A stretch of 64,000 bases of DNA, taken from an uncultured Bacilli bacterium. GTDB lineage: Bacteria > Bacillota_I > Bacilli_A > RF39 > UBA660. The notes beneath the pieces are model-generated. The model did no database searches, was not told the DNA's origin, and worked only from the letters and a program-made list of their open reading frames with translations. A program made the position numbers and the translations under genes. The DNA lies in the NCBI GenBank assembly GCA_944358305.1, contig CALVQK010000001.1:163103-227102 (forward strand), written 5' to 3'. Positions 19,646-62,598 of this stretch are shown in pieces; position 1 is the first letter of the stretch; each line of letters opens with the position of its first letter.

Positions 19646-21499
19646 ATGGAGAAAGATAATAAAAAGAAAAAAATAATTACTTTAGTAATAAGTATATTAA
19701 TAATAATAATATTGATTCTTGCAATAAGTTATGCTTACTTTTCTACTAGATTAAATGGATCAGATCAAATAGTAAAAGTAGGAGAGTTAGAACTAGTATT
19801 AAATGAAACAAGTGAAGGAATAACTTTGGATAATGCTATAGGATTAAGTGATGAAGATGGTATGAATTTAACACCATCAACATTTGAATTAAGAAATAAT
19901 GGAGATAAGGCCGTTGATTATACTATTTATTTAGATGACAATACAATTGATGATGCAGATACCAGAATAGACGATATGTATTTAAAATACAATCTAAATA
20001 AAAATGGTGCAGATAGTGGTGCGACTTTACTTACTAGAACAGGATCTAATCCAAATAGAGTGCTAGACTCTGGAACTATAGAAGGTGGAGTGACTAATAC
20101 ATATAGTTTAAACTTATGGATAACAGATGAAGTAGATGGAAACTATTCAGGCCAAGTATTTAGTGGAGTCTTAAGAGTAGAGGTTAGTCAAGAAAGAGCT
20201 ATGGAAGCAAGTACAGTATTGCTTGATAATATACCAGAAGATAATCTTTATGATGATGGAATAGATACCTTTATAACAGGCGAAGATCCAAATAATTATA
20301 TATGGTACTCAGGAAAGTTATGGAGAGCGGTGAGTGTTAATAATGAAACGAAGACAGTTAAATTAGTAACACAATGGAGTATAAGTTCTATTCCTTATTC
20401 AAATGGCAGTTCTAAATTTACAGGAAGTTATATGGAAGAATGGTTAAATGATACAAGTGTAGATGGTTTTTTAGGTAATTTAAGAGATCATGAGAACTTT
20501 ATAGTAACAGATGCAAAGTGGGATGCAACAATGGATAATCGAAGTCTAGGTAATATAACAAGACCAAATGGTACAACTGTAGTGACAGATGCTGTAGGTC
20601 TACTTAATATGTATGAATACCAGACAAGTTATACTGGAACTACCTATAGCAATGGATATTTAAATAACGAACTATGGTGGTGGACTTTGACTCCAAGCGA
20701 TAATAGTAGTATTAATGTTATATTTGAACCAGGGAATGTAGGACATAATGAGCCCGCTAGTTCTTTTGGTGTTCGTCCTTCAGTGATACTAAAATCAAGT
20801 ATAAATATAGTTGGTGGTAATGGAAGTGAATATGACCCTTATCGTTTAGATGGCGATAATGACAATAATTTGTCTGGCACATTACTTAATACAAGGTATA
20901 GTGGGGAATACATTAGTTTTGGACTGGGCGAGAATAATTTGTATAGAATAGTAAGCCATGAAACAGAAAAACTAACTAAGATAACAAGTGCTGAAGCTTT
21001 AAAAAAATCTGATGGGTTTGTACAAACAGCTTTTGGCAATGATATAACATTTTCCAAAAATAATGCAATAGGTAGTTTTTTAAATGGTGAATATTTAAAT
21101 AACTATGTTGATAAAAAGCAAAGTGATATGATAGAAGACAGCACTATATGGTATCTTGGAGCAGTAGGAGAAGGTACGTCATATAAATTAGCTAAATATA
21201 CAGATGTAAGTGGAAAAACATTAACTTCAAATAGTACAAGTACCAAAGTAGGGTTGTTAAGATTAGGTGAGTTGCTAGCGGGCCAAACTGACAAATATAT
21301 TAGTAATGCCCATTATTGGCTTTTGACACCATATGATAGTTCTAGAGTTCGTGACATTGGTAATAGTAGTGATTCTTATTTTCTTCCTGTTGGTTGGGCA
21401 GATTATGGCATCAAACCTGCATTAAACCTAAAATCAAATGTTATTATAACCTCAGGTGATGGCACAAAAGAAAATCCATTTGAAATTGCATTGCAATAG
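19646..21499 (+). CDS. N-terminally anchored surface protein, paralogue sharing the N-terminal module with 9701/44730/60656; two C-terminal RPxxNL..GxG..(D/N)P(Y/F) modules
   Basis: A TM anchor followed by SYAYFS...VGELELVLNE...EGITL, alignable to SYAMFT...TGNLTYKLEV...EGNTL of the other paralogues. Two C-terminal modules end GVRPSVILKS..GGNGSEYDPYRL and GIKPALNLKS..SGDGTKENPFEI. Confidence 0.55.
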   Translation: MEKDNKKKKIITLVISILIIIILILAISYAYFSTRLNGSDQIVKVGELELVLNETSEGITLDNAIGLSDEDGMNLTPSTFELRNNGDKAVDYTIYLDDNTIDDADTRIDDMYLKYNLNKNGADSGATLLTRTGSNPNRVLDSGTIEGGVTNTYSLNLWITDEVDGNYSGQVFSGVLRVEVSQERAMEASTVLLDNIPEDNLYDDGIDTFITGEDPNNYIWYSGKLWRAVSVNNETKTVKLVTQWSISSIPYSNGSSKFTGSYMEEWLNDTSVDGFLGNLRDHENFIVTDAKWDATMDNRSLGNITRPNGTTVVTDAVGLLNMYEYQTSYTGTTYSNGYLNNELWWWTLTPSDNSSINVIFEPGNVGHNEPASSFGVRPSVILKSSINIVGGNGSEYDPYRLDGDNDNNLSGTLLNTRYSGEYISFGLGENNLYRIVSHETEKLTKITSAEALKKSDGFVQTAFGNDITFSKNNAIGSFLNGEYLNNYVDKKQSDMIEDSTIWYLGAVGEGTSYKLAKYTDVSGKTLTSNSTSTKVGLLRLGELLAGQTDKYISNAHYWLLTPYDSSRVRDIGNSSDSYFLPVGWADYGIKPALNLKSNVIITSGDGTKENPFEIALQ

Positions 21500-23464: not shown

Positions 23465-24493
23465 ATGTATACAGAAGAAAATCAAAGAGGCAGATTTCCA
23501 TTAAGAGATATTTTATTAAAAGCTATTATAGTTATAATTTTTATAATTTTAATTATTTTTATCATTACAAGACTTACTACACCAAATAATAGTAATAACA
23601 GTAATAGCGTAAATTCTAATTATGATCAAGTATTTAGTGAAAATTTAAAAGCAATGGAAGATGCTGCCTATAGTTATTATACAGAAGAAAGATTACCAAA
23701 AGAAGTTGGAGATATTAATGAATTAACTCTAAGAGAAATGATAAATTCTAATCTTTTAGAAGCATTTACTGATGCAGATGGTAATTCATGTGATGTTAAT
23801 GCTAGTTATATCAGATTAACAAAAAATGAAGAAGATTACACTTTAAGAGTAAATCTTAAATGTAATGAAAAAGAAGATTATTCCCTTACAAAGGTAGGAG
23901 AATATGACTATTGTGAACATGATATATGTAAAAGAGATAGTAGTAAAGAAAACGAAGAAACAGCTAAAGAAGAAGATAACGAAGTAACTGATGAAGTAGA
24001 TATTACAGAAGAAACAGAGACTACCACTACTCCAGCTACTAATAACAGTAATACTAATAATAATACTGGAACTACTAATAACAGTACATCTAATAATAAT
24101 AGCAATACTGGAGGTAGTAGTGGTTCTAGTGGTAATTCAAATAATACATCTAATAATACACCGCAAGTAATAACAATGTATGAATATAGAAAAGTAACAG
24201 ATCCTGTTTTATCAGGATGGAGTGCTTGGAGTAGTTGGGCTTATAATACAGAAAGATATAGTGCTATTAAATGTGGTACTACTGATGCCAATTGTTTAAG
24301 AGAAGTTCAATTATATTCACGAAGAGAACAAGTAGGAACAAGTAATGGTAGACCAGTTTATGGTACAGTTAATTACTATAGTTATAGAACAAGAACCTTA
24401 ATTAGTAGTGGTTCTACTGATACAAAATGGAGTACTTATAATGACCAAAGCTTATTAAGCCAAGGTTATACTTATACAGGAAATACCAGATAG
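23465..24493 (+). CDS. hypothetical N-anchored secreted protein (N/S/T-rich linker, Cys-containing C-terminal domain)
   Basis: N-terminal TM, low-complexity T/N/S region and a C-terminal W/Y-rich domain. Confidence 0.4.
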   Translation: MYTEENQRGRFPLRDILLKAIIVIIFIILIIFIITRLTTPNNSNNSNSVNSNYDQVFSENLKAMEDAAYSYYTEERLPKEVGDINELTLREMINSNLLEAFTDADGNSCDVNASYIRLTKNEEDYTLRVNLKCNEKEDYSLTKVGEYDYCEHDICKRDSSKENEETAKEEDNEVTDEVDITEETETTTTPATNNSNTNNNTGTTNNSTSNNNSNTGGSSGSSGNSNNTSNNTPQVITMYEYRKVTDPVLSGWSAWSSWAYNTERYSAIKCGTTDANCLREVQLYSRREQVGTSNGRPVYGTVNYYSYRTRTLISSGSTDTKWSTYNDQSLLSQGYTYTGNTR

Positions 24494-24503
24494 GAGTGAT
24501 AAT

Positions 24504-26162
24504 ATGGGTAAAATAAGAGGACTTTATCGTTTTAAAACTTCAGACATAAATGATCATGCTAAATTAGCATATTGTTATGTTGAAGAAAATGAGTATGGTA
24601 ACTTAGAATATCATTTTACAGAGGATTTATCAATAATAAGAAAAATCTTTGTAAGATATGCTGAGGATAACGGTTATACCAAAGCAGATTTAAATAATAT
24701 TCAAGATCATAAGCACTTTGATTTGAACTGTTCATCTCCTAAAAATGTTTTTGATAAAATAAGAGAAGCGAACAGCGATAAGAATTTATCTATTGAAGAT
24801 TTTGCTAGTAGTTTTGTTCATTCTACAGTTGATCCTCTTAATCTAAATCCTTCTGAATCTGCAGAAGCAGAAGAAGAGTTAGAATTAGATATAGATGATG
24901 CTGAGGACTTAGATGATGATTTTGATGATGAGGAAGATTTAGATGAAAAGGACAAATTCCCAACTCGTGTCCGCAAATTCTTTAGTAATAAATTAACTAC
25001 TTTGAAAAATAAATGGAATAGTTTAAATCCAAGAACAAAAGTTGGCTTTATTGGCGCTGGTATGGCTGCTTTAAGTGTTGCTATTGCTATCGGAGCAAGT
25101 GTAGCTGTTAATAAATTTGGTGGCCCAACCGCTACAAATAGTAGAGTCGCTTCTGTAACAGATGATAATGATAAAGATAAAAACAAAGATCAAAATGATA
25201 AAAAAGATGAACAAGAAACTAAAGATGAAGATCAAAAAGAGAAAGAAAATGAAGCTAGTAAACAAAATACAGATGGTTCTAGCCAAACATCTAATGATAA
25301 CTCTTACAGCCAAGCCTCATCTAATGGCAACTCTAATTCTGGCTCAGGTTCATCATCAAATGGTGGTGGTTCATCAAGTGGTGGAACTTCTGGAGGCGGA
25401 TCAACTGGTTCTACAACAACTCCAGGAAGTATAAATGAAGATGTTCCAGTTTTCCAAAACCCTGACGAGTCACTAGATAATTCTAATAATGGTGGTTCAT
25501 CTGATGGAGAGACAGAAGATCCTTATGAAAATGTTAATGAAGGAGAACAAGATACCAATATAGGAGAAGGTGAACAGCCTGATCAAGATGAAGATTATAG
25601 TGAAGAGATTGATGTTCCACCTTCAACTGAAGATAAAGATAATGTCGATAAAGATGATGTTGATTTCAACGATGAACTTACAGGAAATGAAGATGCTGTA
25701 GATGACGATGATCTAAGCTATGATATGGATGTACCATTAGATCAAGGTGATTCTGAAGATTATGAAGTAGTTACTCCAGCACCACTTCCAGATCCTAATG
25801 ATACAGCAGTAGCTGGAGATGGTGATTATAATACAACAGAAGATGAATTAAATAATGTAACAGAAGAAGAAGTTAATACTACAACACCTACTACACCAGA
25901 TCAAAGTCAAACAGAAGACTATAGCGAGGAAATAGATGTTGTTCCAGTAACTCAAGAATTAGTAGAACCAGAAGGACAATATGTAGATCAGGATGCGGAG
26001 TTAGCTGCAAGACAAGAAGCCAATGCTAATGCTGTAGAACAAGCTGTTAATGAAATGGCTGAAGGTAATGATGTTAGCTTAATATTTAATGATCAAACAG
26101 GTACCGTAAGTATCCAGCAAAATACAACTACTAACACACAAACAAATAGTATGACAAAATAG
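24504..26162 (+). CDS. hypothetical single-pass membrane protein with acidic and S/G/N/D-rich low-complexity regions
   Basis: A roughly 100-aa globular N-terminal domain, an acidic stretch, a TM (VGFIGAGMAALSVAIAIGASVAV) and a long D/E/S/G/N-rich exterior region. Confidence 0.4.
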   Translation: MGKIRGLYRFKTSDINDHAKLAYCYVEENEYGNLEYHFTEDLSIIRKIFVRYAEDNGYTKADLNNIQDHKHFDLNCSSPKNVFDKIREANSDKNLSIEDFASSFVHSTVDPLNLNPSESAEAEEELELDIDDAEDLDDDFDDEEDLDEKDKFPTRVRKFFSNKLTTLKNKWNSLNPRTKVGFIGAGMAALSVAIAIGASVAVNKFGGPTATNSRVASVTDDNDKDKNKDQNDKKDEQETKDEDQKEKENEASKQNTDGSSQTSNDNSYSQASSNGNSNSGSGSSSNGGGSSSGGTSGGGSTGSTTTPGSINEDVPVFQNPDESLDNSNNGGSSDGETEDPYENVNEGEQDTNIGEGEQPDQDEDYSEEIDVPPSTEDKDNVDKDDVDFNDELTGNEDAVDDDDLSYDMDVPLDQGDSEDYEVVTPAPLPDPNDTAVAGDGDYNTTEDELNNVTEEEVNTTTPTTPDQSQTEDYSEEIDVVPVTQELVEPEGQYVDQDAELAARQEANANAVEQAVNEMAEGNDVSLIFNDQTGTVSIQQNTTTNTQTNSMTK

Positions 26163-26219
26163 TTTTACTATTTGTTTTTTCTTTGGTATAATTTAAGTAA
26201 AGAATAGGAAGTGGTGTTT

Positions 26220-28124
26220 ATGAATTATAGTTTTGATTTACTAACAGAGCTTGATGATAATAGAAATGAAATAGAGGTCTTTATTGATTCTTCTAACACC
26301 GCTATAGATAGTGAAAGAATAACTGAACTTACAACTATAATTAACCAACTATTAGGGCATTTTAATCAACTTTTAGTTAGAGTACAAGATATTATCCCTA
26401 AAGAAGATATTGATAATAATATAAAATTAGCCAAAGAAATAGAAAATAAATTAAAAGAGATAGAAATAAAAAAACCAAAAGATAAAGTAGAATCACTAAT
26501 AGCAATATATAATAATTTAAGAAACCATTATGATAATTTAACTGCCAAAATATTAACTTACATAAAAACAAGTGATACTATTTCCTCTTATAACAAACTA
26601 GTAATAAAAGCTAATGAGAATATTGTTGCCCTAAATAACTTAGATCTTTCTAAAGATATAATAGATGAAATATCTTCTCTTTATAATGAATTAAAAAATA
26701 GTAATGATCTTTCTAAAATAAATAATTTTATCAATAAGACTAATGACATAATAAAAGAATATACTACTAGCGATTTAAATGAAAAAAAAGGAAAACCATC
26801 AGAACGTATTTTTTCTCTTTTCGCTAAAATAAACGACCAAATAATAGACTCATTATTTCTCCCTAAAGACAACTTAGTTTATGCTTCATATATTCTAGAA
26901 GATAAAAGTAAATATTATGCTATTATAAAAGAAGAAAAAGAAATAGCTATATTAGATCAAAGCTTTACTAATTTGCCAAATTTAGTATTAACTAAAGACA
27001 ATATAATAGATACCTGTAAAACTATTATTAAAAATGCAGGTATATATTATGATATAAATGAGTACATGCGTTATATTGAAAAAAGTTATAAAACTAAAAT
27101 GACTAAAGAAATAGATGAATTAGTGCTTAAATATAAAGTAAGATTAAAAGAATTAGAAAAAAACATTAATAGCCAATTATCTTTTATTGATGATATAGCA
27201 CTTATAGTTAATAAAATGCCTTGTAAGAAGTATCCTAATATTAAATATAATGATGTAAAAGTAGAAGAGTATTTCCCTAATTATGAAGAAGAACCTGATA
27301 GTAAAGCTAAAGAAATAAAACGTCTTATAATAGAAGTTTTATTAAATCCTAATATTAAAAGCGAGTTCGATACTAAAAGTATTTTAAAGACATTATATGA
27401 TAAAGATACAATTGCCTCTCTTCTTAAAAGTGATTATAAACCAAATAATACAATTCCTATAGTTAATACAGATAATAATATTAATATAGATACTGATTTA
27501 ACTAATCCTCTTAAAACTAATTCTGAAAAAATAAATACTTATCTAAATAATAGACTTGATGAGTTAGAGCTTCTTAAAAGTAGTCCTAAGATAAATGTTA
27601 CAATTACTAAATATGATGATGTTTTATATAAAGATATAAATACTATATTAGATCTTATAACAGCAGGTGTAATATGTGATAAAGTTTATAAAAAAGGGCA
27701 AGGAGACTATGCAATATTAGATTATTTAAAAACTGGCAATAATTTAAAGTTCACTTCAAAATATAAAGCTAGAGTCTTAGCCACTAGTATAAATAGAGAT
27801 AGTTATCTAAAACTATTATTAGAAAATATTCTAAAAAAATATATTTATATAACTTCATCTAATGGTAAAGACATTATAATAGATTATTTAACACCTCTTT
27901 TAACTAAAGAGAAAATATTACCTAAAGATATACTAAACGATTTACTTAATAATGAAGAAATGTTAAAAAACTGCATCAAACACTTTGATTATGATTTTCT
28001 TAATCCTTTATCAGATAAATCTCTAAAAGTAGAAAAAATAGGTAAAGAAAGTAATGATATAAATATCAGTAAAGCAAATGATATGTTAGTAGAATTAAAA
28101 AAAATAGATAACATACTTAATTAA
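26220..28124 (+). CDS. hypothetical protein (K/N/I-rich, predicted helical)
   Basis: Long ORF with RBS AGGAAG. No recognisable family. Confidence 0.4.
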   Translation: MNYSFDLLTELDDNRNEIEVFIDSSNTAIDSERITELTTIINQLLGHFNQLLVRVQDIIPKEDIDNNIKLAKEIENKLKEIEIKKPKDKVESLIAIYNNLRNHYDNLTAKILTYIKTSDTISSYNKLVIKANENIVALNNLDLSKDIIDEISSLYNELKNSNDLSKINNFINKTNDIIKEYTTSDLNEKKGKPSERIFSLFAKINDQIIDSLFLPKDNLVYASYILEDKSKYYAIIKEEKEIAILDQSFTNLPNLVLTKDNIIDTCKTIIKNAGIYYDINEYMRYIEKSYKTKMTKEIDELVLKYKVRLKELEKNINSQLSFIDDIALIVNKMPCKKYPNIKYNDVKVEEYFPNYEEEPDSKAKEIKRLIIEVLLNPNIKSEFDTKSILKTLYDKDTIASLLKSDYKPNNTIPIVNTDNNINIDTDLTNPLKTNSEKINTYLNNRLDELELLKSSPKINVTITKYDDVLYKDINTILDLITAGVICDKVYKKGQGDYAILDYLKTGNNLKFTSKYKARVLATSINRDSYLKLLLENILKKYIYITSSNGKDIIIDYLTPLLTKEKILPKDILNDLLNNEEMLKNCIKHFDYDFLNPLSDKSLKVEKIGKESNDINISKANDMLVELKKIDNILN

Positions 28125-39264: not shown

Positions 39265-39932
39265 TGAAAATAAATAATAGATTAAAAACAATAGGGGATT
39301 TAGTTCCCCTTTCTTCATATCCCTTAGATATAGGGTGTGATCATGCTCTTTTGTCCATTTATTTAGTTAAAGAAAAAGGAATACAAAAAGTACTTGCTAG
39401 TGATAATAAAAGTGGCCCTTTAAAAAAAGCTAAAGAGAATGTAAATTTTTATAAAGTAAAAGATAAAATTAAATTAGTTGAAGCTGAAGGCTTAGATTCT
39501 TATGAAGAGGGAATAGATACTATTACTATTTCTGGTATGGGTGGTCTTAATATCAATAAAATATTAGATGATAATAAAAGATATTTAAAGAATATAAACA
39601 CTTTAATATTATCTCCTAATAACTATTCTATTGCTGTTAAAAGAAAATTAACTAAGTTAGGATACCATATAGATAATGAAGTCTTAGTTAAAGAAAATAA
39701 TATAATTTATGAGATATTAGTTTTTAAAAAAGGAAGAAAATACTATTCATATAAAAAATTATTTTTAGGGCCAGTTTTAATGACTAAGCAAGATAATCTT
39801 ACTAAAGAACATTATCAAAATCTTTTAGAAACTAAAAGATCACTCCTTAAAGCTCTACCTTTATCATTTTCTAATAAAATTAGAGTTACTAAAAAAGAAA
39901 TTAAATATTTAGAAGAAGTTATAAACATTTAA
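39264..39932 (+). CDS. trmK: tRNA (adenine22-N1)-methyltransferase TrmK (YqfN-like)
   Basis: SAM-MTase N-terminus (LDIGCDHA) and the conserved dnaG-sigA-trmK synteny. ATG overlaps the sigA stop (TAATG). Confidence 0.7.
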   Translation: MKINNRLKTIGDLVPLSSYPLDIGCDHALLSIYLVKEKGIQKVLASDNKSGPLKKAKENVNFYKVKDKIKLVEAEGLDSYEEGIDTITISGMGGLNINKILDDNKRYLKNINTLILSPNNYSIAVKRKLTKLGYHIDNEVLVKENNIIYEILVFKKGRKYYSYKKLFLGPVLMTKQDNLTKEHYQNLLETKRSLLKALPLSFSNKIRVTKKEIKYLEEVINI

Positions 39933-39944
39933 GGTATTACTAAA

Positions 39945-40313
39945 TTATTTAGTAGTATCTTTTTTATTAATCCCAATAACAGCACCTACACTAGTTGTTA
40001 AAAGAATTATAAAACTATAAATAAATGTCCTAATATCAAAAGAGCTATTAGTTATTAATTTTAATATTATCATAACAAGTAAAAATATTGCCCCTAATTT
40101 CAAACCCTCAACAATACCATATTTATTAGAACTTTTTCCTAAAAATAAAGCATTAATAAAAAGTACTCCTAATACTATAACCATTTTCATAATATTATAA
40201 ATATTGTTATTGATTACATCAAAATAATAAAGTGTATTTAGAATAAGCCCTAATATAATTATACTACCAAAAGTAATTAAAATAAATTTTCCTATTTTTT
40301 TTAAATAATTCAC
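39945..40313 (-). CDS. small hypothetical membrane protein (4 TM)
   Basis: A 122-aa hydrophobic ORF. Confidence 0.35.
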   Translation of the reverse strand: MNYLKKIGKFILITFGSIIILGLILNTLYYFDVINNNIYNIMKMVIVLGVLFINALFLGKSSNKYGIVEGLKLGAIFLLVMIILKLITNSSFDIRTFIYSFIILLTTSVGAVIGINKKDTTK

Positions 40314-40439
40314 TAAAGCATCACCTACTAAATGTTATGTAAATATATAAACTTATATTACAGTTTTATGTAATATGACAAAATATTAGTTTGTGTTTTT
40401 ATCTTTTTTGTTTTATAATTTAAAATAAGGAGGATCAAA

Positions 40440-42641
40440 ATGAGAGGTAGAAAAAAAGAAAAAAAGGGATTTACGTTAGTAGAGCTTTTAGCAACGATCA
40501 TAATATTAGGCCTATTAACAGCAATCGCTTATATAAGTGTAAGAAGCATTTTAGATAGAGGTAATGACAGTTATTATGTTTCTCAAGAAGATATGCTTGT
40601 TTTAGCAGGAAGAGAATATTATGCTGATCATAGAAGCGAATTACCTAAAGATGTAGGAGATACATCTAATGTAACATTAGAAACATTAATTGAACAAAAA
40701 TATATAGATCCTATTAAAGATAGAAATGAAAATGATTGTGATTTTGTTAATAGTAGTGTGACAGTCCAAAAAATAACAGAGACTGATTATCAATACTATG
40801 GTATTTTAACTTGTAGTGGTGACAATTATCAAACAGAAGAGGATGAAGCAAATCCAGTGATAAAATTTAATCCAAACAAAAAGTCTTCACAAAATTCTAT
40901 AAACGTTACTATGCAAGTTACAGATAATGTAGAAGTTGCCAGTGTTAGATATGTAATAACTAAAGATGGTGAAGCATATCAAGATAGTGGTTATCAAGTA
41001 TACAATGGAGATATTAATATAAGATTAACAGAATTAGGTTTATATGAAATAACAGGATATGCTATTGATACAAGTGGTAATATGACATCTAGAAGATCTG
41101 GTCAATACTCAATTTATAAAGGAGTAGATTGTAGTAATGTTAAATTTACTAGTAGTGATACCATTGCAAACGAAAATATAACTGTTAAAGTAAATGTTCC
41201 AGATAATACTTATAGATGGGAATTAAGTGAAAGAGTAGATGGTGGCTCATATCAATTAATGGAGTCTTATATAGGAAGCGAAGATCAAACTATAGAATTA
41301 TCTGATGAAGGAACTCATCAATTGAGAGCTGTAGTATATGATCAGTATGGTAACACCTGTACATCTACAAGTTCTTCATATACAATTGATAAAACTCCTC
41401 CAACTTTATCAGTAGTTTTAAAGAAAAAGTCAAGTAAAACAGACTTAGGAGAAACAGCTAATATTTCTTCCTTAGCAGATTATACAAATAATACTTGGTA
41501 TAGTGGTTATGTTGTCTTAAGAGGAAGTTGCTCTGACAATAGAGGAAGTTGTACGGTTTCTTATCAAGTTACAGGAGCTTCAACAAACACAGATGGTTAT
41601 GTAAATAAAACTACTCGTAATATTAACGCTGAAGGAACATCAACAGTAACATATAGAGTAACAGATACAGCAGGAAATGTTACAACAAGATCATATACTA
41701 TAAAACTAGATAGAACAGCTCCTTCGTGTCCAACCCTTACATCATCTATCGCTCAAAAGACTTGGACTAATCAAAATGTAAGCTTTACTTTTGACTTTGA
41801 TAATGATACCGACAAGTGGCAATGGTATACAGGTTCTGCTGGTAAATCTTGGACAGATTGGGGAGAAAAACCAATTAGCACTACATCAGTATCTATAAGT
41901 GGAGAAGGTAAAAGAACAATTAAAGTAGGTCTATATGACGAAGCAGGTAATTATAGGGAGTGCTTTGATGGTAACCAATATTATATTGATAAGACCAAAC
42001 CAGTATTAACATACTCTGTAACTCAATCATCAGATAGTTCAAAAGGAGTTTCAGGAAACAGTAAAGATGGTAATGTCTCAAAAAACTTCACTTCTCTTGG
42101 CAACGCTATAAGAAAATTCAGTGCTACAGATAGTGCAAGTGGCATTTCAACTTATCAGTACAACTCTGGCAGTGGTTGGAAGACGGAAACAAAGTATTCT
42201 AGCTATACTGTAAAATCAAATAATAACGCTAGCTACAGAGTTAGGGACAAAGCCGGTAATTATTCTAATACAGTAACTTTAAATATAACTATTCAGGATC
42301 CAGATCCAGACAAAAACTTCAAAGTAACTTGTAAACAAACTTGCCATGGGAATTGTAGTTTAAATGGTTGGAATAACGATACTATCTGGCGTTGGGATAT
42401 TTCAGGTGCAGGTAGTGGTGTTTCTAAAGCTAAACTTGATTATTCAACCGAATGGGTAGATCATTACTGGACAGCTGAAATGACTAAAACTGGTAAGCAA
42501 GTAGTAAGTAAGAGTGGTGGATATGCAGTATTTAATTTACCAACTAAGTTTGAATTTACTAGATCTTATGCCAAACTAAAAATAGTAGGAGATGTTTGGA
42601 CTGTAAATGGTAAGAAAAAAACGTGTACAATACAAGAATAA
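40440..42641 (+). CDS. large type IV pilin-like (prepilin-type N-terminal cleavage/methylation) protein with Ig-like repeats
   Basis: Class III signal peptide KKG|FTLVELLATIIILGLLTAIAY (G-F-T-L-x-E consensus). About 690 aa of repeated beta-rich (Ig-like) modules follow. Confidence 0.65.
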   Translation: MRGRKKEKKGFTLVELLATIIILGLLTAIAYISVRSILDRGNDSYYVSQEDMLVLAGREYYADHRSELPKDVGDTSNVTLETLIEQKYIDPIKDRNENDCDFVNSSVTVQKITETDYQYYGILTCSGDNYQTEEDEANPVIKFNPNKKSSQNSINVTMQVTDNVEVASVRYVITKDGEAYQDSGYQVYNGDINIRLTELGLYEITGYAIDTSGNMTSRRSGQYSIYKGVDCSNVKFTSSDTIANENITVKVNVPDNTYRWELSERVDGGSYQLMESYIGSEDQTIELSDEGTHQLRAVVYDQYGNTCTSTSSSYTIDKTPPTLSVVLKKKSSKTDLGETANISSLADYTNNTWYSGYVVLRGSCSDNRGSCTVSYQVTGASTNTDGYVNKTTRNINAEGTSTVTYRVTDTAGNVTTRSYTIKLDRTAPSCPTLTSSIAQKTWTNQNVSFTFDFDNDTDKWQWYTGSAGKSWTDWGEKPISTTSVSISGEGKRTIKVGLYDEAGNYRECFDGNQYYIDKTKPVLTYSVTQSSDSSKGVSGNSKDGNVSKNFTSLGNAIRKFSATDSASGISTYQYNSGSGWKTETKYSSYTVKSNNNASYRVRDKAGNYSNTVTLNITIQDPDPDKNFKVTCKQTCHGNCSLNGWNNDTIWRWDISGAGSGVSKAKLDYSTEWVDHYWTAEMTKTGKQVVSKSGGYAVFNLPTKFEFTRSYAKLKIVGDVWTVNGKKKTCTIQE

Positions 42642-42658
42642 TAAAGGAAGGTTATAAT

Positions 42659-43468
42659 ATGAAAAACAAATTAAAAATTGCTGTAGTAATCGCTATAATA
42701 GCTATTTTGTTAATTATTGGAGGAGTAGTTATTTACTTCTCCTCTAACTCTAATAACAGTGAAGAAAATAAACCAAACACCGAAAGAGCAACTCTTGAGG
42801 AAATGAGAAATTATGTAGAGACATTAAACAATACTATTATTCACGGAGGAAATGAAGATGTTTTAAAGAAAGTCTTACATACCACTGAAATTGATGAAAC
42901 ATCTATTATGACCGGTAAAGATGCTTATCTTTTAAAGACGCCTAGTGAAGAAATAATAGAGGAATATTCCTTGGGTCAATATGAAAACACCGCAAAAACA
43001 CTAGCTCAAAACCTAGAAACAAAAATAAAAGATAACTTTGAATATACAATTACCGATGTAGGTGAAACAGATGATTATACTTCTTTTCATATAACTTATA
43101 GAACATTCTATTATAATGCTTATATTAATGATTTACTTACAATTAGAAATGAACTTTTAACAAGAGAAGGATACGACTTAGATAATGTCGTAAATAATGC
43201 CCAATTTATAGCTGACTTATATAAAGCAAAAATAAAAGCTGCCTATCTATTAAACAATTATTTAGATAATTATGTTAATCAAAATGAAACAGCTAATACC
43301 GTTTTAAGTTTTACTAACAATAAAATTGAAGATAGTACCGATGAATTTCTATCTTATCTACATAATTTAAATGGTGAAAACTATACTAAAAGTCCTAATC
43401 TAACAACTGAAGAAGAAATAAATGCTTTTTTAAATAATTTTGATTTAACAGATCCGCTAGCTTTATAA
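42659..43468 (+). CDS. hypothetical N-anchored protein co-transcribed with the pilin-like gene
   Basis: RBS GGAAGG, then MKNKLKIAVVIAIIAILLIIGGVV TM anchor. No family recognised. Confidence 0.4.
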   Translation: MKNKLKIAVVIAIIAILLIIGGVVIYFSSNSNNSEENKPNTERATLEEMRNYVETLNNTIIHGGNEDVLKKVLHTTEIDETSIMTGKDAYLLKTPSEEIIEEYSLGQYENTAKTLAQNLETKIKDNFEYTITDVGETDDYTSFHITYRTFYYNAYINDLLTIRNELLTREGYDLDNVVNNAQFIADLYKAKIKAAYLLNNYLDNYVNQNETANTVLSFTNNKIEDSTDEFLSYLHNLNGENYTKSPNLTTEEEINAFLNNFDLTDPLAL

Positions 43469-43520
43469 AATAACATATGATAAAATAATAAACGTTAACG
43501 AAAGAAGTGATATTTACATT

Positions 43521-44564
43521 ATGAAAAAAATTATTTTAACTGGTGATAGACCCACTGGGAATCTACATTTAGGTCATTATGTAGGTTCCTTAAAAAACAG
43601 GGTAGAATTACAAGAAAAGGGCGATTACGATGAAATGTATGTTTTTATCGCTGATGCTCAAGCTCTAACAGATAATTTTAATAACCCTAAGAAGGTTAGA
43701 GATAATATTATAGAAGTAGCGATAGATTATTTATCTGTAGGAATAGATCCCTCTAAAGTAACTATCTTTATTCAGAGTATGATTTCACCACTTTGTGAAC
43801 TTACTATGTATTATATGAATTTAGTAACATTAGCGAGACTAGAGAGAAATCCTACTGTTAAAAGTGAAATAAAACAAAAAGAGTTTGGTAATAGTATTCC
43901 TGTAGGATTTTTAAACTATCCAATAAGTCAAACTGCAGATATAACTGCTTTTGAAGCTACAATTGTTCCCGTAGGAGATGACCAACTACCTATGATAGAA
44001 CAGGCAAGAGAAATAGTTAGAAGTTTTAATAATATTTATGGAGAAACATTAGTAGAACCAAAAGCTGTTATTCCTGATAATGAAGCTTGTAGAAGACTAC
44101 CAGGTACAGATGGTAAAGCTAAAATGAGTAAATCTATTGGCAATTGTATTTACTTAAAAGATGATAGCGAAACAGTTAAAAAGAAAGTTATGAGTATGTA
44201 TACAGATCCTAATCACTTAAAAGTAGAAGATCCTGGTAATACTAAAGATAATCCTGTATTTATCTATTTAGAAGCTCTATCAAAAGATGAACATTTTAAG
44301 AAGTATTTACCTGAATATAAAAATTTAGATGAATTAAAAGCTCATTATGAAAAAGGTGGCCTAGGCGATGTTAAAGTAAAGAGATTCTTATATGAAGTTA
44401 TAGAAGATACTCTAAGGCCTATAAGAGAAAAAAGAAAGTATTATGAAGAAAACATTGACCTTGTCTATAATATCCTAAAAGATGGTAGTAATAAAGCCTT
44501 AAAGAAAGCCAACGCTACTTTAAAAAAAGTAAAAAAAGCTATGTTAATAGATTATTTTGATTAA
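43521..44564 (+). CDS. trpS: tryptophan--tRNA ligase
   Basis: Class I HIGH-type motif (TGNLHLGH) and KMSKS. Confidence 0.9.
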   Translation: MKKIILTGDRPTGNLHLGHYVGSLKNRVELQEKGDYDEMYVFIADAQALTDNFNNPKKVRDNIIEVAIDYLSVGIDPSKVTIFIQSMISPLCELTMYYMNLVTLARLERNPTVKSEIKQKEFGNSIPVGFLNYPISQTADITAFEATIVPVGDDQLPMIEQAREIVRSFNNIYGETLVEPKAVIPDNEACRRLPGTDGKAKMSKSIGNCIYLKDDSETVKKKVMSMYTDPNHLKVEDPGNTKDNPVFIYLEALSKDEHFKKYLPEYKNLDELKAHYEKGGLGDVKVKRFLYEVIEDTLRPIREKRKYYEENIDLVYNILKDGSNKALKKANATLKKVKKAMLIDYFD

Positions 44565-44602
44565 TTATTAGTTTACACAGTTATTTGTAAATACCTTATC
44601 TT

Positions 44603-44630
44603 AATAGCACAAAATGTGCTATTATTTTTA
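44603..44630 (+). terminator. rho-independent terminator after trpS
   Basis: AATAGCACA-aaa-TGTGCTATT plus T-rich tail. Confidence 0.55.
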
Positions 44631-44729
44631 TATATAATAAAAGTGCGTCCAAGTAGGAATCTTTGGATGTAACGTCAAGAGAAAATAAAATAAATTTTAT
44701 TTCTTATATCTAAGGTAAGGTGTTGGTTT

Positions 44730-46334
44730 ATGAGATTTAATATCAAAGAATTTATGAAAGCAGATATATCTAAGTTTTATATTTTAATAGCAGGAACTAT
44801 TTGTCTATTAGTATTAGGAGGTTATTTTTCTTACGCTATGTTTACAGTATCAAAAGAACAAGATAATGCTGTAAGTATTATAACTGGTAATTTAGAATAT
44901 GATTTACAAGTAGATGGAGAAGAAGGTAATACTTTAACAGTACCTGCTAATTCAACGAATGACTTTATTGTTACTTTAAGTAATCCCAATAATAGAGAAG
45001 CAAGATTTAATTTCTATTATGAAGATACATTACCTGATGATGTAACAGTTGGTTATGTCCCTGCTAATGGTGTAAATGCTGTTGCAGAAGCCAAAGGTAT
45101 AAACTTATCATCTGATGGTTCAAGTGGTTCTAGTAATACCTATAGAATCCAAGTGAAAAATGATACAGATAGTGAAATAAAAGTTACCTTAGGAGCAGAA
45201 GTAGGATTAGATTATAATGATTTAACATTGCCAGAAAATACTCAAACAGTTGATGAAATAGAACTTTCTCCTGCTGCCAAGACAATTCTTTCTGCTAATG
45301 CGATACAGGATGATTCTAAAAATATGTTTAACTATGTAAACGATAATGCTTTATATGCTTCTATTAATGATGATAGTACAAACTCTACTCCTAATTCTGA
45401 GTCTACAGTAAGCGGGTTATATGCTATTGAAGATGATAATGGTATCAGTTATTATTTTAGGGGTAATGTAAATAATAATAATGTTCAGTTTGGCCAATAT
45501 GATAATGATTACTATATTTACCAAAGTGGTACTAATTATTATCAGAGTGAAGAAAGTTGCATAGAAGCTGGAAACAGCAACTGTACGAGTGTAAAATTAG
45601 CATCTAAGGGCGATAAAATGTACTGGAAGATAGTAAGAATAAATGGTGATGGAAGTTTAAGATTAATCTATAACGGAATAAGTCCGACTCCTAATGGTAG
45701 TGATTTAGCTAATTCTTATGCAATAGGTGTTGCTCCATACAATTTAACTAGTAATGATCCAAAATATACTGGCTATACCTACGATAATGGAACAAATAGT
45801 TTTATTAAAAGAGAAATAGATACATGGTATAATAATACATTAGGAATTAATACTAATTATGATAGTAAAGTTTTAAGCAATATATTTTGTAGTGATAGTA
45901 GTGGTTACAAGTTAGGAACAGATTATGGTCTAGATGATACTAACTATAATGTCTTTGCTAGTTTTAATAGATTAAGACAAGATTTAAGTAATTATTCTAA
46001 ACCAAATGCTCCAACATTAAAATGTCAAGGGACAGAAGAAACTTATGGTGGATCATATAATTTAAAAGCTGCTTTAATAACAATAGATGAACTAAATATA
46101 GCAGGACTTGGAAGCGAAGCGACTACTTATTTAAGTCAAGATAGTTCCCCACTATATTATTGGACTATGACACCTGCTGCTTTTAATAACAACAATGCAT
46201 TCACTTGGCTTGACAGTTTAGATAATGTTAATGTTACTAATAATTACGCTATACGTCCTGTTATTAATTTATCATTAGAAAATGCTTTTGCAAGTGGCAG
46301 TGGTACTACTGATGATCCTTATATTGTATCATAG
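44730..46334 (+). CDS. N-terminally anchored surface protein, paralogue with shared N-terminal module and one C-terminal RPxxNL..GxG..DPY module
   Basis: GGYFSYAMFTVSKEQDNAVSIITGNLEYDLQVDGEEGNTLTVP...ARFNFYYED aligns to the 9701/60656 N-terminal region. C-terminus AIRPVINLSLENAFASGSGTTDDPYIVS. Confidence 0.55.
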   Translation: MRFNIKEFMKADISKFYILIAGTICLLVLGGYFSYAMFTVSKEQDNAVSIITGNLEYDLQVDGEEGNTLTVPANSTNDFIVTLSNPNNREARFNFYYEDTLPDDVTVGYVPANGVNAVAEAKGINLSSDGSSGSSNTYRIQVKNDTDSEIKVTLGAEVGLDYNDLTLPENTQTVDEIELSPAAKTILSANAIQDDSKNMFNYVNDNALYASINDDSTNSTPNSESTVSGLYAIEDDNGISYYFRGNVNNNNVQFGQYDNDYYIYQSGTNYYQSEESCIEAGNSNCTSVKLASKGDKMYWKIVRINGDGSLRLIYNGISPTPNGSDLANSYAIGVAPYNLTSNDPKYTGYTYDNGTNSFIKREIDTWYNNTLGINTNYDSKVLSNIFCSDSSGYKLGTDYGLDDTNYNVFASFNRLRQDLSNYSKPNAPTLKCQGTEETYGGSYNLKAALITIDELNIAGLGSEATTYLSQDSSPLYYWTMTPAAFNNNNAFTWLDSLDNVNVTNNYAIRPVINLSLENAFASGSGTTDDPYIVS

Positions 46335-46392: not shown

Positions 46393-46645
46393 TGATTTAT
46401 TTTATCTAATATGATACATTAAAATTAGATGGGAGACTTGTAAAAAAGATGGAAAAGGAAGGAGGAAGAAAAAAGTGAAAAAACTTGTAATTTTGAAAAT
46501 TGAATATACTTTTTAATGTCAATGTTTTAAATTGGTCTAATGAAATGAAAAAATTGATAGGTGTTTTTAAGATCAATTTACAAAATTCCCTTTTTGTTTT
46601 AGGGCTATAATTATGTTACAACTATTGCAGAAAGGAGTTATTGTA

Positions 46646-47602
46646 ATGAAAAAAAGAATGAAAAATATTCCTAAAGGCGTTAGTAATAAAGAAATTAGAG
46701 ATTATATGTTATCTAATAATTTCGTTTATGAAGCAACTTTTGATCCCGTGTTTAAATCAATAATGGGAAACTGTCCTAATTATTTAGCAGATTTAATATC
46801 TAATATAACAGGTATAGATAAAAACTTAATAAAAAAGACATTTAAAGAAAAGAATGTTGAGTATAAAGTAAGTAATGCTTTAGAAAGAAAGAAAACTTCA
46901 GATTTTATCTTTCAGTGTAGAGGCTATATCATTAATCTAGAATGTAATAATGAATACTGGGAAGGTCTAATAGAAAGAAATGAAGCTTACTTTTCTAAAA
47001 TAAAAGGAGAATTATTAAATAAGGGAGAACAATATAGTAAGAATATAAAAGTAATTCAAATAAACTTTGATAATTATAAGGAATATGAAAAAGCTTTAGG
47101 GAAAGAATTAATATCAGATTTTAAGATAAGAAATGGCATTGGTTTAATAGAAACAGAGTCTAGTATAAAATATCATATAAATTTATATAAAATAAAAGAG
47201 AAATATTATAAAGGAGAAGATTTAACGAGATTAGAAAAAGAGTTATTAATATTAACACTAGATGATTATAAAGAAATAATAAAAATAAGTGAAGGAGATG
47301 AAATACTAATGGAAGTAAGAGATAAATTATATGAACTAACAAATGATATAGATAATATAGGGCTTTATGATCCTGAGAAGAGGAGAAAAGAGGAAGAAGA
47401 GTTAAAGATAGAATACCATACTAAACTTGCTAGAGAAGAAGGAATTGAACAAGGAATAGAAAAAGGGATTGAACAAGGGATTAAACAAGGTACTAGTAAT
47501 GAAAAAAAATTTATTGCTAAAAATCTCTTAAAAGATGGATTGCCTATAGATAAAATATCTAAATATACTGGCCTTAGTGAAAAGCAGGTATCACTATTAT
47601 AG
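46646..47602 (+). CDS. Rpn/YhgA-like PD-(D/E)XK nuclease family transposase-like protein
   Basis: C-terminal repeated (E/K)GIEQG motifs and ...IAKNLLKDGLPIDKISKYTGLSEKQVSLL tail typical of this family. RBS AAAGGAG. Confidence 0.55.
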   Translation: MKKRMKNIPKGVSNKEIRDYMLSNNFVYEATFDPVFKSIMGNCPNYLADLISNITGIDKNLIKKTFKEKNVEYKVSNALERKKTSDFIFQCRGYIINLECNNEYWEGLIERNEAYFSKIKGELLNKGEQYSKNIKVIQINFDNYKEYEKALGKELISDFKIRNGIGLIETESSIKYHINLYKIKEKYYKGEDLTRLEKELLILTLDDYKEIIKISEGDEILMEVRDKLYELTNDIDNIGLYDPEKRRKEEEELKIEYHTKLAREEGIEQGIEKGIEQGIKQGTSNEKKFIAKNLLKDGLPIDKISKYTGLSEKQVSLL

Positions 47603-47945
47603 GAGATGAAAATTTAATGGAAGTAAGAGATAAATTATATGAACTAACAAATGATATAGATAATATCGGACTATATGATCCAGAGAAAAGGAGAAAAGAG
47701 GAAGAAGAGTTAAAGATAGAATACCATAGTAAGCTTGCTAGGGAAGAAGGAATAGAGAAAGGAATTAAAAGAGGTGCTAGTAATGAAAAGAAATCTATTG
47801 CTAAAAATCTTTTAGAGATAGGTATATCTAAAAAAGATGTAATGAAAGCGACAGGATTAAACGAGAAACAGTTATCACTATTATAGGAGATAAAAACTTA
47901 ATGGAAGTAAGAAATAAATTATATGAACTAACAAAACTAATTTGA
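47293..47945 (+). repeat. tandem direct repeat (about 284-309 bp, about 2.2 copies) duplicating the 3' end of the Rpn-like gene
   Basis: GGAGATGAAA(T/A)(A/T)TTAATGGAAGTAAGAGATAAATTATATGAACTAACAAATGATATAGATAAT recurs at 47293, 47602 and 47886 (third copy truncated). Confidence 0.85.
47617..47886 (+). pseudogene. in-frame fragment duplicating the C-terminal 89 aa of the Rpn-like protein
   Basis: MEVRDKLYELTNDIDNIGLYDPEKRRKEEEELKIEYH... is near-identical to residues of the upstream gene. A third 14-aa remnant lies at 47901-47945. Confidence 0.6.
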
Positions 47946-60462: not shown

Positions 60463-62598
60463 GATTCAGGAAACCATTTTAGGATAATGGAATAATAGAT
60501 AATAATGAATGTAAAATAACAATAAGACTAAAAGTTATTGTTATTTTTTATTTGAACAATAGGACTCTATGTGTTAATATTATATTAGAAAAGGTAGTAA
60601 CAAATAAGTAGAAATACAAAAGTTAGTACATACTAAAGATTAGGAGTGGAGTCTAATGAAAAGATTATTACTAGAAACAAGCTTCAGTAAAATTTATATG
60701 ATCTCTGTAATAGTAATAAGCTTACTTATAATAGGAGGCTATTTTTCATATGCTATGTTTACAGTAAATAGGGAGCAGAGTAATGCAATAAGTATTATTA
60801 CAGGGAACTTAACTTATAAACTAGAAGTAGATGAAAGTGAAGGTAATACTTTAACAGTTCCACAAAACAGTAGTAGAGAATTTATAGTAACACTATCTAA
60901 TCCTAATAATAGAAAAGCAAGATTTAACTTTTATTATTTAAATGATTTACCTAATAATGTAGAAGCAGGCTATATTGTAGATTGTGAAACAAATACTTTA
61001 CCAGAATCTGTTGGCGTAAACTTAGAAACAAGTGGCACAGCAGGATCTAGTAATATATATAAAATAATGGTAGAGAATAATTCTAGTAATGATGTAACAA
61101 TAGAGTTAGGAGTAAATGTAGGGCTTGACTATAATGATTTAGAATTACCAAGTAATGGTCATATATTTAAAGAATATGAGAATGTTCCAAATGCTCCAGA
61201 GTTAGATGAAGGAATGATACCAGTAAGTTATGATGGATCTAACTGGGTAAAAGCAGAGTCTAATAATACAGATAATAGTTGGTATAACTATGATGAACAG
61301 ATGTGGGCAAATGCTGTCACCGTAACAGAAGAAACAAGAGATATATATAAGAGTGCTGATGTAGGAACAACAATATCAATGGATGATATAGAGACAATGT
61401 GGGTATGGATACCAAGATATAGTTACTCTATAGGAAGCGAAGATGGAACAAATTACTATGGAAAGAAAGGATGCTATTTAGAAACAGATCCTACTCAAGC
61501 TTTACCAGGAGAAATAGATGTAAGATTTGTAGATACTAATATAAAAGATAGAGGAACAGCCAAGTATGTAACAACAAGTGGAGCAAGAGAGTATTATACC
61601 CCAGATGCCTTTACATTTGGTAGTGTTGAGCTTAGTGGAATATGGGTAGGAAAGTTTGAGACAAGTAGTTCTAATCCAAGTGTAACAGCAGGAGGAGGCA
61701 ATACAACAGAGTTAGATGCCATGATCAAACCAAATGTGGCAAGTTGGAGAGATATAAATGTAAGTAATGCCTTTAATGTAAGTTTAAAGATGAATAATAA
61801 TGGAAATAGATATGGAATAGAGAGTACAACAGATACTCATATGATGAAGAATAGTGAATGGGCTACAGTTGCCTATTTATCACAATCAAAATATGGAAAG
61901 TTAGGTAATACTAACTTTACTGGGGCGGATAAAGAGATATATCAAAATAAATCAGATCTTTTTATAACAGGATGCAGTTATGGCAGTCCAAGTAACGGGA
62001 ATACAGATTATGGTTGCCAATATCAATATAATATAGAAATAAATGGAACAGGGGCAAGTACAACAGGAAATATCTATGGAATTTATGATATGAGTGGTGG
62101 TGCTCATGAATATACAATGGCAAATTATAATGATTTAATTGCAGATAGTGGTTTTTCTTCTATGCCTGACTCAAAATATTATGATAAATATACAACTGAT
62201 AACATGTTAACAGCTTGTAGTGGAAATGAATGTTTGAGCCATGCTTTATACGAGACTAATAATTGGTATAGTGATTATCGTGGTTTAGTAAGAGAACAAT
62301 ACCCATGGCAATTACGTGGAGGAATTTATAATTATAGTATTAAAGCGGGAATTTTTAATTTTGAAATTAGTAATAGTGCTGTTGGGGGTAATACTATAAA
62401 TGATGCTTTCCGTTTAGTAGCTACAACAAGTTAAGTGAGTAAAAAAGAAAAAATTAGTATTGTATAAGATATTTATTCATAATAAAAGGAAATGAGTTTT
62501 ATTCATTTCCTTTTGTCATTATTCTTAATTTATCATAACTTTCTAATCCTTTAGAGCTTCCATCTGGAAGCAGATAAATATAATAAACTTTAAGTCTT
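60463..62598. repeat. segmental duplication, copy B (inserted between rpsO and pnp)
   Basis: Collinear with 9507-11655. Includes a 34-nt relic of the divIB 3' end and a truncated relic of the convergent small gene. Confidence 0.9.
60656..62434 (+). CDS. N-terminally anchored surface protein with C-terminal FGE-sulfatase-like domain, paralogue B (duplicate of 9701-11470)
   Basis: First ~300 aa nearly identical to paralogue A. The C-terminal FGE-like half is roughly 75% identical, including WEY -> HEY within the GIYDMSGGA(W/H)EY motif. Confidence 0.6.
   Translation: MKRLLLETSFSKIYMISVIVISLLIIGGYFSYAMFTVNREQSNAISIITGNLTYKLEVDESEGNTLTVPQNSSREFIVTLSNPNNRKARFNFYYLNDLPNNVEAGYIVDCETNTLPESVGVNLETSGTAGSSNIYKIMVENNSSNDVTIELGVNVGLDYNDLELPSNGHIFKEYENVPNAPELDEGMIPVSYDGSNWVKAESNNTDNSWYNYDEQMWANAVTVTEETRDIYKSADVGTTISMDDIETMWVWIPRYSYSIGSEDGTNYYGKKGCYLETDPTQALPGEIDVRFVDTNIKDRGTAKYVTTSGAREYYTPDAFTFGSVELSGIWVGKFETSSSNPSVTAGGGNTTELDAMIKPNVASWRDINVSNAFNVSLKMNNNGNRYGIESTTDTHMMKNSEWATVAYLSQSKYGKLGNTNFTGADKEIYQNKSDLFITGCSYGSPSNGNTDYGCQYQYNIEINGTGASTTGNIYGIYDMSGGAHEYTMANYNDLIADSGFSSMPDSKYYDKYTTDNMLTACSGNECLSHALYETNNWYSDYRGLVREQYPWQLRGGIYNYSIKAGIFNFEISNSAVGGNTINDAFRLVATTS

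Follow-up and report, generated by a model that had tools for sequence, protein, structure and literature searches.

Modular pilins, where a pilin module at the N-terminus is followed by at least one extra domain that is not specific to type IV pilus biology, form a class of over 1,200 proteins that fall into 264 architectures, multi-domain cases included (Raynaud et al. 2021, PMC8179133). According to the same source, Streptococcus sanguinis PilB has been shown to be an adhesin, while CofB/TcpB are thought to cap the filament and to mediate binding (PMC8179133). We analyzed a stretch of 64,000 nucleotides (the window) from an uncultured Bacilli bacterium (GTDB lineage Bacillota_I; Bacilli_A; RF39; UBA660), taken from contig CALVQK010000001.1 of assembly GCA_944358305.1, positions 163,103 to 227,102. 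Within it, a single gene encodes a protein of 733 amino acids (aa), here called the giant pilin. An earlier note, made from the letters of the window, had described it as a type IV pilin-like protein carrying Ig (immunoglobulin)-like repeats. Our sequence analysis confirms this description and, judged by testable defining features, places the protein in the established modular-pilin class. The gene and its parts are as follows, where AF2 refers to the AlphaFold2 model and pLDDT to its predicted local distance difference test score:

40440-42641, + strand: giant pilin open reading frame (ORF), 733 aa, ATG start
40427-40433, + strand: Shine-Dalgarno sequence AAGGAGG, six bases 5' of the giant pilin ATG, read from the sequence
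40440-40469, + strand: class III (prepilin) leader peptide MRGRKKEKKG, aa 1-10, with Gly(-1) at its end; Pfam N_methyl and TIGR02532
40470-40628, + strand: alpha1 helix of the pilin module, aa 11-63; continuous in AF2 over 13-63
40629-40844, + strand: small globular pilin head, aa 64-135; AF2 strands 75-79, 106-111 and 117-122; block-mean pLDDT mostly 77-94; Cys100/Cys125
40854-41117, + strand: Ig-like beta-sandwich domain 1 (AF2), aa 139-226, in the conserved core; median identity 67%; DTSGN at residue 210
41124-41393, + strand: Ig-like domain 2 (AF2), aa 229-318; invariant Cys231/Cys307; median identity 46%
41400-41717, + strand: Ig-like domain 3 (Big_3_3 / Big_13), aa 321-426; Pfam matches at 289-418 and 377-424; block-mean pLDDT above 90 over most of it
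41727-41993, + strand: Ig-like domain 4, aa 430-518; AF2 strands of lower confidence; DEAGN at residue 500; Cys430/508
42003-42296, + strand: Ig-like domain 5 (OmpL47-type), aa 522-619; best stretch of NF047446 at 554-618; poorly modelled, block-mean pLDDT 33-55; DKAGN at 603
42315-42638, + strand: cysteine-containing beta domain at the C-terminus, aa 626-733, without a match among known families; block-mean pLDDT mostly 73-84 from residue 651 on, lower ahead of it

Class membership follows from what stands C-terminal to the pilin module. Big_13 and Big_3_3 both exceed their Pfam gathering scores, and an OmpL47-type beta-barrel domain (NCBIfam) matches four stretches of the protein (E 2.5e-16). 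Taken together with the five beta-sandwich domains predicted by AF2, these matches bear out the claim that the repeated beta-rich modules are Ig-like. A D-x-[AST]-G-N motif recurs along the chain at residues 210, 409, 500 and 603.

Among the characterized systems, the modular pilins of S. sanguinis, namely PilB with a von Willebrand factor A (vWA) module and PilC with a lectin module, share with the giant pilin the class III signal, the small pilin module and the C-terminal domains unrelated to pili. Both occur in monoderm hosts, both are proposed tip adhesins, and the top PDB match of the giant pilin is also a protein of S. sanguinis, PilE1. The giant pilin differs from PilB and PilC in presenting a chain of five Ig-like domains and an unclassified end domain rather than a single vWA or lectin module, in lying outside a pil locus, in its larger size (733 aa) and in being known from sequence alone. 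CofB/TcpB, the type IVb tip minor pilins of enterotoxigenic Escherichia coli and Vibrio cholerae, likewise carry, behind their pilin module, C-terminal domains that are rich in beta structure and sit on a linker. However, these belong to diderm type IVb systems, are encoded inside the pilus operon and carry different beta domains, and no sequence similarity to the giant pilin was detected past the N-terminal helix. Surface proteins with OmpL47-type, Big_13 or Big_3_3 domains contain the same type of repeat as the giant pilin stalk but are anchored via the outer membrane, as lipoproteins or through LPXTG, whereas the giant pilin has a prepilin N-terminus. Finally, ComG pseudopilins and those of the type II secretion system (T2SS; GspG/H/J/K) have the N-terminal methylation motif and an alpha1 helix in common with the giant pilin, yet differ in size, domain content and gene context. 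The T2SS pseudopilin models stayed below their cut-offs on the giant pilin (GspG 20.9 vs 88.85 bits, GspH 16.3 vs 80 and GspJ 11.1 vs 295), and the ComG and T2SS matches were confined to residues ~5-57.

The giant pilin begins with MRGRKKEKKG, ending in Gly(-1), and continues with FTLVELLATIIILGLLTAIAY, the hydrophobic N-terminal half of alpha1, which opens as FTLVE and so contains Phe(+1) and Glu(+5). Both curated models pass their thresholds, Pfam N_methyl PF07963 at 29.1 bits (gathering score 21.2) and NCBIfam TIGR02532 at 29.1 bits (16.3). In the 66-member family alignment, G10 (-1), F11 (+1) and E15 (+5) are invariant, and the same is true of 17 head-domain sequences. The textbook prepilin peptidase site and hydrophobic helix that had been read from the letters are thus upheld, as is the remark that the protein is about five times the usual pilin size. 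Strict and relaxed six-frame scans of the window found this prepilin motif only, and an LPXTG-type sorting signal ([LIV]Px[TSA]G), as expected for a sortase-assembled pilin, was not found anywhere in the giant pilin. In type IV pilins, Glu(+5) is required for filament assembly and not for membrane anchoring, and such a residue is unfavourable within a plain membrane anchor. Its invariance across the family therefore argues for polymerisation, and we consider this the strongest indirect argument available.

When the PDB sequences were searched in full with a profile made from residues 1-138, 24 matches at E<=1 were returned, and 20 of these were type IV pilins or pseudopilins. These included the top 18 matches, with all 20 pilin chains at E<=0.24. 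The best was S. sanguinis PilE1 (8pfb, E 2.3e-7), and the others included Geobacter PilA, MshA, Neisseria PilE (aligned to ~residue 105) and GspG. Outside the pilins, the search matched an ATP synthase subunit b once (E 0.16) and oxidoreductase entries three times (E 0.83-0.9). It should be noted that the signal in this search lies mostly within alpha1. The AF2 model (mean pLDDT 75.9, with block means mostly of 74-97 over residues 41-430) comprises an alpha1 helix of 51 residues, a small beta head, the five Ig-like beta-sandwich domains and the C-terminal cysteine-containing domain. A pilin fold, in the sense of a helix of ~50 residues with a beta head, is thus predicted to be present. The cysteines are arranged as pairs inside domains (100/125, 231/307, 364/371 and 430/508, with 631/635/639/729 in the end domain), and the family alignment shows C125, C231 and C307 to be invariant and C100 to be conserved in at least 90% of members.

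A homologue search with the giant pilin yielded 183 proteins at E<=0.001. The matches listed (120 of 183) are 471 to 1222 aa long, and PF07963 is present in almost every one of them; giant pilins of relatives reach ~1500 aa. The homologues come nearly all from metagenome assemblies, the named members being Candidatus Onthousia (Bacilli incertae sedis). Matches in the genome collection are metagenome-assembled genomes (MAGs) labelled as uncultured Bacilli, Tenericutes or Erysipelotrichia with 25-32% GC, the closest of them being 69% identical to the giant pilin. Median identity falls steadily along the protein, from ~65% for the pilin module and Ig1, through 46% for Ig2, 32% for Ig3 and 22% for Ig4, to 17% for the C-terminal domain and for Ig5. 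Members differ, too, in how many Ig-like domains they have, and several relatives possess two or three giant pilins each. The gradient and the range of lengths together suggest a conserved assembly or carrier module that bears variable, diversifying binding modules. Because metagenome samples that are independent of one another contain the identical protein, on at least 12 contigs and with the ORF intact and synteny conserved, we count the gene as being in use.

The C-terminal domain is rare. When its profile was compared with 1.84 billion representative proteins, only 20 clusters were matched, and the matches lay at, or few residues from, the C-terminus of the matched proteins. Ten such proteins were retrieved, all of them large (548-961 aa); nine have a pilin N-terminus and the tenth is N-terminally truncated. 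The pilin N-termini of the nine represent several different head types, and by eye some of the proteins contain other modules. On the sequences collected so far, then, the domain appears in large pilin-type proteins only, and in this it is new at the family level. In the window copy, W and K stand in place of two cysteines that most members conserve.

With moderate confidence, we favour the reading that the giant pilin is a modular minor type IV pilin, belonging to a filament that would be built by a PilB/PilC machine encoded elsewhere; the C-terminal part of the protein would lie exposed and act as an adhesin, most likely at the tip. The mechanism described here was deduced from the workings of characterized pilins, and processing, incorporation into the filament, tip location and adhesive function should all be regarded as inferred by analogy. 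A prepilin peptidase encoded elsewhere in the genome would cut off the basic leader of 10 residues after Gly10, and the mature protein would then be held in the membrane by the hydrophobic N-terminal half of alpha1. A filament machine of the PilB/PilC type, also encoded elsewhere, would extract it into the filament, where it would dock by means of alpha1. With ~600 residues of bulky domains behind the small pilin head, the protein would most likely sit at the tip, or else occur at low frequency on a flexible linker. The five Ig-like domains would serve as a stalk, and the variable domains at the distal end, the cysteine-containing C-terminal domain among them, would bind a ligand of the gut environment. 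The adhesin role is suggested by the types of domain and by the conservation gradient.

The whereabouts of the machinery has to be considered when assessing this reading. Pfam scans of 36 window ORFs detected no pilus machinery, hidden Markov models (HMMs) of PilB/T/C/D/M/N/O, for which three type IV pilus operons of Bacillaceae served as the source, matched none of the window ORFs, and a scan of the window for GspE-type Walker A sequences was likewise negative. The statement that no pilB, pilC, pilD or pilM-O genes lie in the window is therefore correct. PilB-type ATPases (PF00437, E 3e-119 to 2e-129) do occur among the fetched low-GC MAG loci, in L021, L039 and L040, and by HMM in L087, and a PilC-type T2SSF protein is found in L022. 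One MAG, CAKPFD01 (L021 and L022), holds a big-pilin homologue, PilB and PilC on two different contigs. Since the ATPase and platform genes are dispersed in these distant low-GC relatives (L021, L022, L039 and L040), there is no sign of a single main locus. The suggestion of the earlier note that the giant pilin is an orphan encoded away from the main locus accordingly holds in one part, as neither it nor its close homologues have machinery within 10 kb, but not in its assumption of one main locus. Syntenic relatives also have two small pilins (170 and ~195 aa; 197 aa in L002), paired at a conserved locus of their own with a GHL10 gene on one side and lon on the other. No pilus machinery adjoins here either, and DUF6273 proteins flank this locus. 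The PilB-type ATPases of L039 (3498-5363, - strand) and L021 (18782-20083, - strand) stand alone, with no adjoining platform or peptidase gene, and that of L039 carries a low-complexity tail of ~200 residues rich in Pro, Thr, Val and Asn. Matches of an A24 peptidase regular expression in low-GC loci were rejected as false positives inside trpS. Going by the relatives examined, type IV filament genes exist but are dispersed, and the systematic separation of giant pilins from machinery genes is, as judged from these sequences, new at the family level.

Several observations weigh against the favoured reading and should be taken into consideration. Neither the window nor the surroundings of any close homologue, out to 10 kb, were found to contain a prepilin peptidase, an ATPase or a platform gene. 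The MAGs that bear PilB or PilC are distant, the pilin of L021 being 31% identical to the giant pilin over residues 2-324, and HMMs detected no PilD/M/N/O homologue in any of the fetched low-GC loci (~20 kb each). A full-length Foldseek search against the PDB gave generic multi-Ig proteins alone (complement C3 and cytokine receptors, with template-modelling scores of ~0.2), a result that, at the level of the model, confirms the Ig stalk and is uninformative on the pilin head and the end domain. The C-terminal domain is without a known homologue, and both the adhesion and its ligand are putative.

Of the alternatives, the one that survives best, and that we nonetheless think unlikely, is that of a surface protein anchored as a pilin but never polymerised. 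Its class III signal would then serve for cleavage and membrane retention only, and the Ig stalk would span the wall and show the distal domains. Such an arrangement would be akin to that of archaeal sugar-binding proteins with class III signals (the 'bindosome' of Sulfolobus). That the giant pilin and its homologues never adjoin pilus machinery is in keeping with it, as is the presence in the window of many other surface proteins with N-terminal membrane anchors instead of LPXTG. In a paralogue at 23465-24493, the same head domain follows an anchor that is ordinary and not of the prepilin kind, and by rough geometry five Ig-like domains could span a Gram-positive wall. A plain anchor, however, hardly explains the invariance of Gly(-1), Phe(+1) and Glu(+5): a charged residue in a membrane helix is not expected to be conserved unless assembly selects for it, which counts against a mere anchor. 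PilB and PilC, moreover, are kept in related MAGs.

We regard as clearly improbable that the protein is a minor pilin of a competence (Com) pseudopilus, concerned with DNA uptake and not with adhesion to host or food surfaces. The only Com model that matched was ComGD, at E 0.29 and with 11.5 bits where its cut-off is 70, and the giant pilin gene lies outside any comG operon, with comGA and comGB not found nearby. Multi-Ig stalks with hypervariable ends typify adhesins and not DNA receptors, and the two or three giant pilins of several relatives do not fit this role either. ComG systems are, on the other hand, well established as common in monoderm Bacilli, and the ATPases of the relatives are PilB/ComGA-like and short, have a four-cysteine motif and are without a long N-terminal domain. 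Nor did the low-GC loci yield a PilT-specific retraction ATPase, the PilT HMM having matched the same PilB-like proteins only.

That the gene is a decaying or non-functional remnant of a pilus system lost from a reduced genome is very improbable: the apparently small genomes of the lineage (a relative's protein lies on a contig of 1.52 Mb), the machinery not found nearby and the two cysteines replaced in the window copy would fit, but the 733-codon ORF is intact behind a strong ribosome-binding site, the identical protein recurs in many independent samples, nearly all of the 183 homologues retain the signal motif, and the conservation gradient points to purifying selection on the pilin module.

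The genes around the giant pilin are arranged as follows:

39945-40313, - strand: DUF3792 membrane protein (Pfam PF12670), divergent and conserved upstream neighbour, at the same position in L001-L009
42659-43468, + strand: single-pass N-anchored protein of 269 aa, starting 17 nt past the pilin stop; alpha+beta ectodomain with weak NTF2-like fold similarity
43521-44564, + strand: trpS, directly downstream in conserved synteny; tRNA-synt_1b in every syntenic locus
44602-44624, + strand: terminator-like hairpin after trpS, the only one that the terminator scan found in 39800-44800

In close relatives the order is conserved as DUF3792 (- strand), big pilin, small anchored protein and trpS; at the syntenic locus of L001, two big pilins stand in tandem, with one more nearby. 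The scan showed no terminator-like site from the giant pilin gene to trpS, and the two are possibly co-transcribed.

The protein at 42659-43468 is anchored and co-oriented with the giant pilin, as had been described, and is probably co-expressed with it. Its length of 281 aa in the earlier note needs revision, as this counts from an upstream GTG at 42623 that overlaps the pilin gene, and the protein most likely has 269 aa, beginning at an ATG that has its own ribosome-binding site, AAGGAAGG, and is used by every metagenome gene call. The idea that it might resemble PilN or PilO found no backing: no Pfam or PDB sequence match was obtained, its weak fold match is NTF2-like, and it is not conserved beside the pilin, the ectodomain being replaced by unrelated ones in other family members. 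It has 13 detectable homologues, among them a 50% identical orthologue at the same position in L001. Elsewhere in the family, the downstream position is taken by unrelated anchored proteins of at least four sequence types (BLAST). Homology among these partners was considered and rejected, as BLAST and hhalign align the membrane anchor only between types A and B. By eye, several of the types show a C-x(2-5)-C motif right after the anchor.

A single-pass N-anchored protein nonetheless lies directly 3' of the big pilin in 13 of 19 cases, as compared with 77 of 672 background ORFs from these loci (11%; Fisher p = 2e-8). This test employed rough ORF calls and a simple hydrophobicity rule on loci that are not phylogenetically independent, which should be considered when referring to its p-value. 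The association was drawn from L001, L002, L012, L013, L016, L017, L019-L021, L023, L024, L027, L029 and L092, together with 42659-43468 of the window. We regard it as real but unexplained; as far as the compared sequences indicate, a recurring anchored gene downstream of the pilin is new at the family level, and it hints at an undescribed accessory factor.

Several further features of the window were recorded. The paralogue at 23465-24493 (+ strand, 342 aa) shares the pilin-head domain of the giant pilin at 36% identity over 70 aa, with both cysteines kept, and its N-terminus (…RGRFPLRDILLKAIIVIIFIIL…) resembles a degenerate prepilin signal without Gly at -1; judging by its sequence, this may be a pilin that has turned into a plain membrane-anchored protein. 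The next two genes, 24504-26162 (552 aa) and 26211-28124 (637 aa), gave no Pfam match. Paralogous N-anchored proteins of 534-617 aa are encoded at 9701-11470, 60656-62434 and 44730-46334 and, more loosely related, at 19646-21499. From end to end, the 9701 and 60656 copies share 84% identity in spite of the 50 kb between them, the copy at 44730 shows 53% identity to these two over the first ~180 aa, and the copy at 19646 matches DUF6273. The N-termini of this family (…GGYFSYAMFTVNRE.GNAISI.TGNL…) may recall a signal of the SipW/TasA type, a putative likeness for which NCBIfam gave no match in 44730-46334. At 47617-47886 (89 aa) lies a near-copy of the last ~90 residues of 46613-47602 (329 aa; MEVRDKLYELTNDIDNIGLYDPEKRRKEEEELKIEYH…), a local partial duplication in which neither member has a significant Pfam match. 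The protein at 12006-13394 (+ strand, 462 aa) contains a long Asn/Ser-rich low-complexity N-terminal region and has no Pfam match. Over the 64 kb, no Rfam family was matched at gathering thresholds, and hence no T-box leader precedes trpS (43521), hisS (31503) or aspS (32755). Aminoacyl-tRNA synthetase genes without a T-box leader are unusual for Bacillota. The trpS gene is only 52 nt from the preceding gene.

A more far-reaching proposal, which we put forward as speculation and hold to be rather doubtful, is that giant pilins might be the main route of surface-protein display in small-genome gut Bacilli. They would be encoded in a two-gene cassette with a single-pass protein of interchangeable ectodomain, which might be a dedicated partner on the membrane side, such as a chaperone, a factor for docking or a subunit displayed along with the pilin. 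The machinery genes would be scattered over the chromosome instead of forming an operon, and the C-terminal domain would be a new terminal module for binding or capping.

Modular pilins show how simple filaments gain many functions, yet few have been studied, and those in cultured pathogens. The giant pilin family presents the same modular design in uncultured gut Bacilli with small genomes, with a conserved carrier of pilin module and Ig1, a stalk of variable Ig count and fast-evolving ends. This leaves current concepts unchanged and extends the known modular-pilin class. If the proteins are indeed pilus-tip adhesins, they would be candidates for the attachment of these gut bacteria to their hosts, to food particles or to other cells.

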